Positions 16,246-21,323 of a stretch of DNA of 23,288 nt are shown piece after piece. The position numbers were made by a program, and so were the translations under genes. The first letter of the stretch is position 1, and each line of letters begins with the position of its first letter. The stretch is from Candidatus Heimdallarchaeota archaeon (GTDB lineage Archaea; Asgardarchaeota; Heimdallarchaeia; Hodarchaeales; Hodarchaeaceae): positions 1 to 23,288 of the forward strand of contig JBHLSH010000063.1 in NCBI GenBank assembly GCA_048881705.1, given 5' to 3'. The notes below the pieces were generated by a model, which saw nothing but the letters and a program-made list of their open reading frames with translations, was not told the DNA's origin and ran no database searches.

Positions 16246-16510
16246 AACAATTCACCTTTGAGTCTGTTGAGATTTTTTTCCCGTAGTAAGACCAGTACGT
16301 TCTAATTTCAGTTTTGATAGAAAGCGATATTGACTCCAGTTATATGAACATATTCGGGCGATACCCAAATCATAAAGAAAGATCATGAGACACTTCAGAA
16401 AGGCATTCTTATCCCGTTCTCGAAATGTTTATTTGATTCAACTTAATTATTGAAAAGAATTACCATAAAATTTATTGGAGAGTATTTTTTCACCATAATT
16501 GGTTCATTCA

Positions 16511-17833
16511 ATGCAGCTAAGTGATCAGAAACGATCGAAAGAGAGGGATTTTTGGAGCAACAAGACTGGATATGCTATGATAAATGAGGATTTTTCGCAG
16601 TTCTCTCAAAAGAACGTGATTTTTTCCCGTGTTAAATGGGATCGTTCATATCGAGCATACGGGAAAACTTTGGCTGAAAAGCAGGGGAGAAGGGTTGGAA
16701 AAAAAGGGTATAGTCGAGTGGGTTATGCTGTACAATCGGCAGCATGGACAATTTATGATAAATACCCTCATTCGTTCTCCTGGGATCGTATCCCGTATCC
16801 TGGAACGGTCGAATTGACTCAACTTAGTACTTCCCTCCCTAAATATGAATCCAAGGATCTTGGAAAGAATTCGAACACCGTTAAACGCGTTGGGCAGATC
16901 TTTGGTGCGGCCGATGTGGGGATTTGTGAGATAGATCCCAAGTTAATCTATTCACATGATGACGAGGGAAATCCGTTAAAGTTACCAGAAGGGGTCAAAT
17001 ACGCAATCATTCTACTCATAGAGATGGATGGAGAAGCCTTGAGAACGTCACCCGAACTTCCTGCTAGTATTACGACTGGAGATGCGTACTCTAGGATGGC
17101 TTTTTCGATATCGCTTATGGGAGAATTCCTTCGGAATCTGGGATATATTGCCATTCAAGCGGGAAATGACGTTGGCCTCTCGGTTCCTCTTGCCATTAAG
17201 GCTGGATTGGGCGAATTTGGAAGGCACGGTATGCTTATTCATCCCAAGTTTGGTCCGAATGTCAGAATATGCAAAGTATTGACAGATTTTCCGATGAAAT
17301 CAGACTCCCCAATCTATTTTGGCGTTCGAAAATATTGCCAAGTTTGCCAGAAGTGCGCCAAATATTGCCCTCCCCAGGCCATCCCTTATGATAAAAATCC
17401 TACTTGGGAGAGTCCTTGGAAAACACCCTCCAATAATTCCGGTGCCACCTATAAGTGGTACGTGAACGTTGACACGTGTTATCAATACTGGACATTAAAT
17501 ACCTCCGATTGTTCGAATTGCCTGGCCGTTTGCCATTTCGGCAAACCACGCAGTCTGTTTAGGAAGTTTAAACTGTTCATGGTAAGAAGGTTACCGGTTT
17601 TTAATCCGTTTTGGGTGTGGCTAGATCGTGCAAAGGGAAAACCTAAGATACCAAGAAGAACTGTTTGTGGGGAAGAACCGAAGATTGGATTTTTCAAACG
17701 GAATTATGAATCACTTAAGAGAAGCATTTCCAAACGTCCAAAAGATGGCAAGAAATGGTGGAAGCGCGAAACAAGGGATTCAGATGAATTTTGGGAATCA
17801 GATGAATATCTAGGTAAGAAAATGCCGATATAG
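16511..17833 (+). CDS. rdhA: Reductive dehalogenase-like cobalamin/2x[4Fe-4S] protein without a TAT signal
   Basis: FGAADVGI, RNLGY, AGLGEFGRHG, FGPNVRICKVLTD, CX2CX2CX3CP and CX10CX2CX3C motifs. Start placed at ATG 16511; the track starts at TTG 16499. Confidence 0.87.
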   Translation: MQLSDQKRSKERDFWSNKTGYAMINEDFSQFSQKNVIFSRVKWDRSYRAYGKTLAEKQGRRVGKKGYSRVGYAVQSAAWTIYDKYPHSFSWDRIPYPGTVELTQLSTSLPKYESKDLGKNSNTVKRVGQIFGAADVGICEIDPKLIYSHDDEGNPLKLPEGVKYAIILLIEMDGEALRTSPELPASITTGDAYSRMAFSISLMGEFLRNLGYIAIQAGNDVGLSVPLAIKAGLGEFGRHGMLIHPKFGPNVRICKVLTDFPMKSDSPIYFGVRKYCQVCQKCAKYCPPQAIPYDKNPTWESPWKTPSNNSGATYKWYVNVDTCYQYWTLNTSDCSNCLAVCHFGKPRSLFRKFKLFMVRRLPVFNPFWVWLDRAKGKPKIPRRTVCGEEPKIGFFKRNYESLKRSISKRPKDGKKWWKRETRDSDEFWESDEYLGKKMPI

Positions 17834-18176: not shown

Positions 18177-19205
18177 TCAAGAGCCTATTTTGGATTTTGT
18201 CGCTCGAATATTGGCGGCAGAAATTGAGGTAGATAATTCCTTGATTTCTTCGGAAGAGATATCTATTTCAATGGGTTCTCCATCCAGAATGACGCGAGCC
18301 TTCCTTGTTCCTTCAAAATTCTCTTCTGATAGTTTCTTATTCTGCGGATCCCGAGGAGAAAGGATCATCTTATCCAATATTTCGACATTAGCAAATCCAG
18401 CGGATTCTATAAGACTGAGGTACTCTTGTTCTGTTTGCGATCTTGTAAGACATCCAGGAACGTTTTGAATTGCATCTCTTACAACCTTTGGAAGTTCCTT
18501 CTCCAAGATTATGTCGGAAATCACCAATCGGCCGCCAGGCTTTAGAACTCGATATGCATCACGGAATACTTGCGATTTATCAACGGATAGATTAATGACG
18601 CAGTTTGATATAATAAGATCCGCTGTATTGTCTGCAATAGGTAAATGTTCGATTTCACCAAGTCGAAATTCGACGTTGTCGTAGTTACCTGATCGAGCAT
18701 TGTTACGTGCCTTATCAATCATTTCTGGAGTCATATCCACTCCTATGACTTTTCCGTTGTTCCCCGTCTTCTTTGAAGCGAGAAAGACATCCACGCCCGC
18801 TCCTGATCCAAGGTCCACCACAACCTCGCCTGGTTGAACTGAAGCCAGTTTTACGGGATTACCTGAGCCCAAGCCTAGATTAGCCCCTTGCGGAATACTG
18901 TCCAATTCTTCTTCAGAATACCATGTATAGTCGCTTTCTTCAATGTTTTGCTTGAGGATTTCAGATCCAATGTCCTCAGATTTGTGAGTCTTAGTTGCAA
19001 TTGATCGATATTGGTTACGAACTTCTTTCCGCACGGCAGTCTCATCAATTATCTCCTGTGAACTTTTCTCAGAAGTTGATGTAGACCCGCAACACGAGTA
19101 GCTGCGATCAGAAAGGGGTTCTATCAGTGGTGATTCGAGATTAATTTTCGATTCGATATTTTTTTGGTTATCGTTAACCTTTTTGGAATTTTCCAGATCT
19201 TTCAT
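18177..19205 (-). CDS. arsM: Arsenite methyltransferase (ArsM-like), variant cysteine set
   Basis: [51 protein letters not shown], a PGC motif and an N-terminal CC. Confidence 0.85.
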
Positions 19206-19245
19206 ACGATTTCCTTCTTTTAATTCACGAATGATTCCGTCAGTA

Positions 19246-19300
19246 AATATTCATCATCAATATTCTTATGGAATATTCCCGAGAAACAAATATTTATATA
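19246..19300. promoter_or_regulatory. Array of AATATT palindromic boxes plus TATA box between arsM and padR
   Basis: AATATTC at 19246, 19259 and 19272 (13-bp period), GGAATATTCC palindrome at 19270-19279, a fourth AATATT at 19289, and TTTATATA at 19293-19300. Confidence 0.5.
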
Positions 19301-19364
19301 GATTGAGGTCAAGGTAAACAGCATACATCACTTCGAGAATTCCTTAATTGCGCACAAACTCAAT

Positions 19365-19787
19365 GTGTTGAGCATGATCGGTAAGAATATTGAGGTTACA
19401 TCTTTAGAAGCCCTGTTCTTAATGACCCTCTACAATTCCTCATCCTTATCGGGAACAGAAATTGTACAGAAAATTAGAAATGATCTAGGAGAGAACTGGA
19501 CCCCCACCACTGGAGCCACATATAAGATCGTCCAGTCATTAACAGAAAAGGGCTATATCAAAGAAACAACATTGGATGCCCGAAAAGACAAGCGGATTCG
19601 AACGTATGCGCTGACAGTGAAGGGTAAGGAGATGGTAAGCGAAGTAACAATGCGAGTACAAAAATTACTGGGTTTTTTGGCTGATTGTTGTCCAGATGTA
19701 TGCGAAGGCGTAGTTATGATCGTTAGAAAAGATAAGGATTCTGATTTATCTATGATTGGCTTTAGACAAGAAGATGGCTCGCAATAA
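19365..19787 (+). CDS. PadR-family winged-helix transcriptional regulator with C-terminal CC-x3-C motif
   Basis: LSGTEIVQKI, WTPTTGATYKIVQSLTEKGYI and RTYALTVKGK match PadR. The start could be ATG 19374. Confidence 0.85.
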   Translation: MLSMIGKNIEVTSLEALFLMTLYNSSSLSGTEIVQKIRNDLGENWTPTTGATYKIVQSLTEKGYIKETTLDARKDKRIRTYALTVKGKEMVSEVTMRVQKLLGFLADCCPDVCEGVVMIVRKDKDSDLSMIGFRQEDGSQ

Positions 19788-20792: not shown

Positions 20793-21323
20793 ATGGCCAG
20801 TGACCGAAAGGTTGTACCTGTCCTAGAACAGGAATTAGAATACCGTTTTCAGGAATTACTAAACCAGCTAGCTATGCTGTCGAAAACAGAGGCCAAGTGG
20901 TTACCAACTCGTAATTCGATGACGTTGGAAACTATAAAAATGTGGAATGCCAAAGGGAGCGATTGGCTTGAGGCACAAAGGTTTGATCCTCTTTCTACTA
21001 TAGAATTTAAGGTGATACATTTAGCACATTGCAAGATAATGTACGATGACTATGCTTTCAGAGAAGGTAAGTTAAAGTGGAGTACGTTGGATTCGCCCGA
21101 ATGGCCTGTCTGTGTTAATTACTTAGAAGAGACTCAAAATCGATTAATGGAAAGTATTCGGTTGTTGACAGATCAACAACTGAAGCAGGAGGTTTCTACA
21201 AACTGGGGGGACTTGTGGCCTATTAAGAAAATCATTTTCACGATGATTCATCATGATTCCTATCATCACGGCCAAATAAATACTATTAGAAAACTCTATC
21301 GAACCAAGAAGGAAAGCTTCTGA
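20793..21323 (+). CDS. DinB/YfiT family protein
   Basis: His metal motif IHLAHC...MIHHDSYHHGQI, plus LMESIRLLTDQQL. Confidence 0.85.
   Translation: MASDRKVVPVLEQELEYRFQELLNQLAMLSKTEAKWLPTRNSMTLETIKMWNAKGSDWLEAQRFDPLSTIEFKVIHLAHCKIMYDDYAFREGKLKWSTLDSPEWPVCVNYLEETQNRLMESIRLLTDQQLKQEVSTNWGDLWPIKKIIFTMIHHDSYHHGQINTIRKLYRTKKESF

Follow-up and report, generated by a model that had tools for sequence, protein, structure and literature searches.

Arsenic regulation has been described almost always in terms of ArsR repressors, and the effectors known for regulators of PadR subfamily 2 are drugs and phenolics that occupy a hydrophobic pore, not thiol ligands. ArsR repressors possess two or three cysteines, C-terminal vicinal pairs among them (PMC11868830). 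For example, the type 2 site of AfArsR from Acidithiobacillus ferrooxidans consists of C95, C96 and C102, and the two-cysteine SpArsR from Shewanella putrefaciens responds to MAs(III) only (PMC11868830). PadRars from Azospirillum halopraeferens Au 4, a bacterial member of the PadR family, represses an operon for resistance to trivalent metalloids (ars) and has the operator CCTTGA-N11-TCAAGG (Zhang, Wu, Tang, Chen, Rosen and Zhao, 2022, Environ Microbiol 24:5139, pmid 35880613). Bacteria thus already provide an example of an arsenic repressor built on a PadR scaffold, and the initial annotation of the DNA studied here, which had proposed a new arsenic-sensing regulator, overstated its novelty.

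The DNA in question, hereafter the window, is a stretch of 23,288 nucleotides from a Candidatus Heimdallarchaeota archaeon, in which a PadR-type gene lies head to head with arsM. The arsM gene (positions 18177-19205, minus strand) encodes an arsenite S-adenosylmethionine methyltransferase of 342 amino acids that matches NCBIfam NF008823 with 300.3 bits (cut-off 263). On the plus strand, the open reading frame running from a GTG at 19365 to 19787 matches the Pfam PadR profile PF03551 with 40.5 bits (cut-off 27) over residues 24-91, and the head-to-head arrangement of a PadR-type winged helix-turn-helix (wHTH) gene and arsM described initially is confirmed. The probable start of the regulator gene is the ATG at 19374, because all homologs begin with M-[IFL]-G-K; the gene, which we call padR-CC, then spans 19374-19787 and encodes 137 amino acids, with the GTG at 19365 as an alternative start. 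The intergenic distance of 159 bp given in the initial annotation holds if the GTG is used, but becomes 168 bp with the more likely ATG.

The regulator in the window belongs to the PadR family (PF03551), subfamily 2, which has a single C-terminal helix, and is not an ArsR protein. The ArsR-type HTH_5 profile gave no match to it at E-values up to 0.01, and matched 23 proteins elsewhere in the same genome; in a profile search of the PDB, the matches were PadR proteins, with 5dym as the best (E = 1e-08). The earlier description of the protein as a non-ArsR regulator is thus upheld. PadR-CC contains exactly three cysteines, C105 and C106 (codons 19686-19691) and C110 (19701-19703), within the motif ADCCPDVCEG, and there are no others, as had been stated. 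The candidate sensor motif C105-C106-P-D-V-C110 (19686-19703, plus strand) begins with the last residue of helix 4, the remainder following immediately.

In the AF2 model of PadR-CC (pLDDT 84), helices span residues 10-20, 27-38, 46-58 and 82-105, and strands at 62-64 and 77-80 form the beta wing. This layout, a wHTH followed by one long helix, is that of PadR subfamily 2, whose members are about 110-130 amino acids in size. LmrR, the Clostridioides difficile PadR 5dym and the Bacillus cereus PadRs resemble PadR-CC in this size range and in the single C-terminal dimer helix; they repress a neighboring detoxification gene, the same role that we propose for PadR-CC. The PDB alignments end before the Cys-Cys motif. 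A fold search against the PDB returned only generic MarR, PadR and winged-helix matches with TM scores of about 0.5-0.6, which added nothing to the sequence profile.

PadR dimers have been solved structurally, and a homodimer was likewise predicted for PadR-CC, with an ipSAE of 0.49 (best control 0.00), contacts at least 69% consistent across runs and a partner pLDDT of at least 72. Among proteins of solved structure, this dimer mark is passed by 20 of 30 that form pairs of one chain and by one of 23 that are single chains; in the case of PadR-CC, the pass may stem from likeness to the PadR dimers already solved. The modeled interface is formed by residues 88-110 and 1-21, with the two-fold axis near residue 99. 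In this model, C105 and C106 contact M17, T18, Y20, K33 and D37 of the partner subunit and hence touch its wHTH, which places the cysteine pair at the junction between helix 4 and the DNA-binding domain of the partner. The initial annotation had called the C-terminal cysteines ArsR-like, and their position at the C-terminal end of helix 4 is indeed topologically like the AfArsR type 2 site. AfArsR and SpArsR share with PadR-CC a vicinal cysteine pair that ends the C-terminal dimerization helix of a winged-helix dimer, with an optional later third cysteine, although they are members of the ArsR/SmtB (HTH_5) family and PadR-CC is a PadR protein. The spacing also differs, being CC-x3-C in the window protein and CC-x5-C in AfArsR.

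The PadR-CC family is small, and in our searches its members were almost exclusively archaea labeled as Asgard. A word-indexed search recovered 12 relatives, all from Asgard metagenome-assembled genomes (MAGs), and an exhaustive HMMER search of 1.8 billion representatives found about 20 clusters at E-values below 1e-8 and no more. The archaeal origin suggested initially agrees with these results, in that the close relatives were without exception from Asgard MAGs or genomes. Among the named records, the module occurs in Heimdall-, Hod- and Hermod-archaeal MAGs and in the chromosome of the cultured Candidatus Lokiarchaeum ossiferum Loki-B35.

In the exhaustive search, every match down to about 27% identity carried Cys-Cys at position 102-115; below about 27% identity the pair vanished abruptly, except in PadR-TRASH fusions. 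Across an alignment of 40 sequences, C105, C106, G47, Y50, Y78 and G84 are invariant. The third cysteine is variable, with the family taking the forms CCPxxC, CCPxCC, CC with a C-terminal cysteine, and CC alone; in about eight of the members linked to arsM, the pair represents the only cysteines of the protein, and several other members have CCPxCC or additional terminal cysteines. The L005 protein, for example, is a two-cysteine member, and that of L. ossiferum has CCPxCC. An ArsR-like C-terminal triad, proposed in the initial annotation as the binding site, is therefore ruled out as a conserved site: CC-x3-C is not kept among the homologs, and what is conserved is the Cys-Cys pair ending helix 4. 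Judged by the alignment, the triad is a trait of the window protein and does not define the family. With its third cysteine variable, the family cannot have a canonical three-sulfur As(III) site as its common mechanism.

A separate PadR clade has a C-terminal CxxC...CCxHC, similar to TRASH/YHS metal-binding domains (L029, L031-L033 and L035, from the Asgard genomes G161, G206, G243, G255 and G169). Proteins P0043 and P0076 belong to the PadR clade with this TRASH/YHS-like extension.

Linkage to arsM is the most consistent feature of the genomic context. Among 25 distinct family members with context, 21 adjoin an arsM-type gene, which confirms the co-occurrence anticipated for the homologs: the arrangement is divergent in 20 cases and co-directional in one, while one further member lies on a contig too short to tell and three distant members have no arsM on the contig examined. 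In each of the first six contexts, an ArsM-type gene lay head to head with PadR, and the remaining neighbors were all different. Searching 400 Asgard species genomes yielded about 20 strong matches, with arsM adjacent and divergent in 16 of 16 close-homolog loci. Altogether, the pair recurs in about 20 further genomes or contigs at species level, where its other neighbors differ. At the margins of the family, P0015 (L073, about 44% identity) is divergent from a truncated arsM N-terminus, and P0023 (L076, 39% identity) is followed by a co-directional gene for an ArsM-like protein, which at 216 bits falls short of the cut-off; the contigs of P0017 and P0020 are too short to show neighbors. Three members with Cys-Cys and 34-45% identity (L024, L025 and L027) have neither arsM nor the box array described below within the contig examined; therefore, the cysteine pair by itself does not imply arsenic.

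The pairwise distances of PadR and ArsM co-vary (Mantel r = 0.81, a value reached by none of 5000 permutations), which is consistent with joint inheritance of padR and arsM, with some contribution of shared species history to this correlation. Taken together, these comparisons indicate that the padR/arsM pair is a real, conserved regulatory module that is very probably related to arsenic. As for the wider surroundings, genes for MerB (organomercurial lyase; L007:698-1408, plus strand) and DinB_2 (L007:4335-4802, plus strand) occur near padR-CC and arsM in L007, and the window itself has a DinB_2/MST-like gene at 20793-21323. The window also encodes a protein of the reductive dehalogenase family (16499-17833, plus strand; TIGR02486, 198 bits) that has no obvious partner gene, and a counterpart of about 440 amino acids is found at the syntenic position in a relative that is 85% identical (L001).

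Between the two genes of the window lies a putative operator, an array of three boxes (19245-19278) whose starts are exactly 13 bp apart: box 1, AAATATTC (19245-19252); box 2, CAATATTC (19258-19265); and box 3, GAATATTC (19271-19278), which is contained in the palindrome GGAATATTCC. The putative TATA box of padR, TTTATATA (19293-19300, plus strand), for which a promoter role is inferred, is located 22 bp past the start of box 3, and in most loci a TATA-like element recurs at this constant distance of about 21-22 bp past box 3. With up to two mismatches allowed per box, 20 of the 25 family loci have three GAATATTC-like boxes ahead of padR, spaced by exactly 13 bp; counts per locus were also made at one mismatch. 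One locus (L022) has just two boxes. In L076, where the ArsM-like gene comes after padR, the three boxes are weaker but keep the 13-bp spacing, and they lie between the two genes, in front of the methyltransferase gene and not of padR; the array follows arsM. At the level of sequence, the boxes can also be read as AATATTC-N5-GAATATT inverted repeats, which are palindromic and conserved. In most loci, 31-39 nt separate box 1 from the start codon of arsM, a distance at which an archaeal TATA box would be expected if the arsM transcript has a short leader.

The array occurs as a single copy in the window's own genome (G000, 3.96 Mb), in the closed 4.9-Mb genome G067 and in G074; in L. ossiferum, whose genome is AT-rich, there are three near-matches, the padR/arsM site among them. 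Scanning G000 and four other genomes for a wider regulon revealed no further convincing site, and the single copy per genome supports a local regulon of one locus. The window's genome also contains acr3 on another contig (C13; L038:1435-2502, minus strand; TIGR00832, 414 bits); it has no regulator gene next to it and lacks a GAATATTC array within 1.5 kb. Because acr3 stands alone, arsenite efflux and methylation are unlinked in this genome. In L024, a 34-codon cysteine-rich micro-ORF (L024:2019-2120, plus strand) with a metallothionein-like character ends in NCCPECCGGCCGTGCC and is divergent from a distant PadR-CC (L024:1483-1842, minus strand) with the tail SSCCSEYCEPCTYCC; the gap between them contains two exact GAATATTC boxes, the spacing of which is not 13 bp.

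The methyltransferase partner departs from the canonical enzyme in one respect. The window ArsM contains an N-terminal SCCGS, GLG-S-GNP, SNCVINL and PGC, and in an alignment of 19 partner ArsMs, a serine replaces the cysteine of the canonical GLG-C-GNP in the window protein and in most partners. By these motifs, the window ArsM is not a four-cysteine ArsM, and the substrate range of the partners is uncertain because of the serine at this position in most of them. PadR-linked ArsMs, including that of the window, mostly keep SCCGS and have a conserved C-terminal extension of about 60 amino acids, and the partner methyltransferases of L005, L006 and L007 also score above the ArsM cut-off. The GLG-C-GNP cysteine is kept in four partner ArsMs, all four of which accompany CCPxCC regulators (L006, L018, L020 and L022), and the partner of every two-cysteine regulator is the serine variant. 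Since phylogeny confounds this pairing, it is no more than a lead.

PadR-CC shares with PadRars the PadR scaffold and probably the class of stress. The bacterial PadRars has CCTTGA-N11-TCAAGG as its operator and controls a resistance operon, whereas the Asgard PadR-CC is associated with three boxes at 13-bp spacing and faces a divergent arsM. PadRars reportedly uses conserved cysteine pairs. Our exhaustive search, seeded with the window protein, found no PadR with cysteine pairs outside positions 105-115 other than the TRASH-domain fusions, which suggests that PadRars is not a close relative. PadRars and PadR-CC are probably separate recruitments. The concept of PadR-CC is thus not new, and the Asgard family differs from PadRars in operator, target gene and domain of life. 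A literature search of limited reach found no archaeal or Asgard link between PadR and arsM. Overall, the initial annotation was right in the PadR regulator, its linkage to arsM and the cysteines at the helix end, but not in the conserved triad or the novelty.

We hypothesize that PadR-CC serves the divergent promoters of arsM and padR as their dedicated, local repressor and is released by a trivalent arsenical, a reading that we consider the most likely one and reasonably probable as a whole; within it, the repression, the ligand and the allosteric coupling are inferred. In such a circuit, a PadR-CC homodimer would bind the three boxes between padR and arsM. The boxes abut the putative BRE/TATA region of padR, and box 1 is close to the arsM start; therefore, occupancy should block both promoters, and bound PadR-CC should prevent access of TBP/TFB and repress arsM together with padR. 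As(III) and/or methylarsenite, MAs(III), would bind to the Cys105 and Cys106 thiolates, which lie where dimerization helix 4 ends, and Cys110 could complete a three-sulfur site in the window protein. The cysteine site is predicted to pack on helices 1 and 2 of the partner wHTH, and the bound metalloid would shift the two DNA-reading heads such that PadR-CC leaves the operator and ArsM is made. By analogy with SpArsR, members with two cysteines may be sensors of MAs(III) alone, or their response to As(III) may be weak.

Alternatively, the cysteine pair might sense another thiol-reactive cue, such as Cd, Hg, Cu(I), Sb, an electrophile or disulfide oxidation, with the ArsM-type enzyme being induced as part of a broader response or acting on another substrate. 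Vicinal thiols are not specific for arsenic, and it would be consistent with such a role that distant Cys-Cys members do not adjoin arsM, that the one in L024 faces a cysteine-rich micro-ORF of metal-binding-like character, and that MerB and DinB-type genes are found near the module in L007. However, arsM is the sole gene invariably linked to padR-CC in the main clade, and the operator tracks arsM in L076. Further, vicinal Cys-Cys disulfides are strained and rare, and oxidative disulfide switching is less likely in archaea of anaerobic sediments. We therefore regard this explanation as unlikely.

It is also conceivable that the cysteines are structural or hold a cofactor (Zn or Fe-S), in which case the protein would be a ligand-independent autoregulator, or would respond to some other cue, and set the level of arsM. 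The CCPxCC motif and the extra terminal cysteines of several members form a pattern known from metal-cluster sites. Yet many members have only two cysteines per subunit, and in the dimer model the antiparallel helices keep the two pairs apart at their opposite ends, so that the cysteines are too few and too scattered to form a cluster; the dimer interface, for its part, is supplied by helix 4 without the cysteines. Such a role thus appears improbable. Chance adjacency of arsM and a generic PadR drug or phenolic sensor, as PadR proteins usually are and as the generic fold matches would allow, is hardly credible given that the pair is kept in about 20 loci with differing neighbors, that the loci share a conserved operator whose array is single-copy per genome searched, and that PadR and ArsM distances co-vary.

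PadR-CC adjoins arsM in a minority of the Asgard genomes that carry it: arsM was found above the cut-off in 189 of the 400 genomes, and PadR-CC accompanied it in only about 18. Among 30 other Asgard arsM loci, the upstream gene encoded an AbrB/MazE-like protein in 16, a cysteine-rich MarR in three, a TrmB-like protein, a TetR and an ArsR with SCCKDYC in one each, and acr3 in four. The AbrB/MazE-like proteins are about 95 amino acids long, match PF04014 with 24 bits, just under the cut-off, and contain an N-terminal CC...(G/S)CC(K/R/H)VE and, in many cases, a VCC near the C-terminus (e.g., L043:1171-1461, plus strand; likewise L045-L047, L049, L051, L053-L055, L058, L059, L062, L063, L065, L068 and L071). 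By these features, the AbrB/MazE-like protein is a second candidate for a non-ArsR arsenic regulator. The window's own genome provides a further case on contig C31, where a second ArsM-like gene (L041:625-1410, minus strand; 235 bits, below the cut-off; motifs SCCG, SFGC, SNCVINL and CSCLGG) is divergent from a gene for a TrmB-family regulator of 261 amino acids (L041:1498-2244, plus strand) with the C-terminus SSSACCKEEVKTCP, containing ACC-x6-C. The AbrB/MazE-like, MarR and TrmB-like proteins beside Asgard arsM have vicinal cysteine pairs in common with PadR-CC, whereas their DNA-binding folds are unrelated, which is suggestive of vicinal cysteines having been added to several scaffolds for arsenic control in Asgards.

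A more far-reaching scheme, which we put forward tentatively and with some doubt, is that a two-cysteine PadR-CC together with an ArsM lacking the GLG-C-GNP cysteine might constitute a sense-and-methylate module dedicated to methylarsenite in anoxic sediments, while CCPxCC regulators paired with a four-cysteine ArsM might sense inorganic As(III). In this scheme, Asgards would have repeatedly grafted vicinal cysteine pairs onto PadR, AbrB/MazE-like, MarR and TrmB-like scaffolds for the control of arsM, largely replacing ArsR in the 30 loci sampled. The natural two-cysteine and four-cysteine variants could then separate MAs(III) from As(III) sensing and be of use in biosensor design, and the components are small, with an operator as compact as three boxes within 34 bp and a very small sensing motif.

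If our hypothesis is true, PadR-CC would be an archaeal arsenic switch on a PadR scaffold, extending the single published bacterial PadR example. The module is present in the cultured L. ossiferum and is therefore testable, and the PadR-CC/arsM circuit is among the few simple transcription circuits open to test in the closest prokaryotic relatives of eukaryotes. With about half of the sampled Asgard genomes carrying arsM, alongside varied cysteine-decorated regulators, the modes of arsenic sensing in anoxic sediments may be underestimated.
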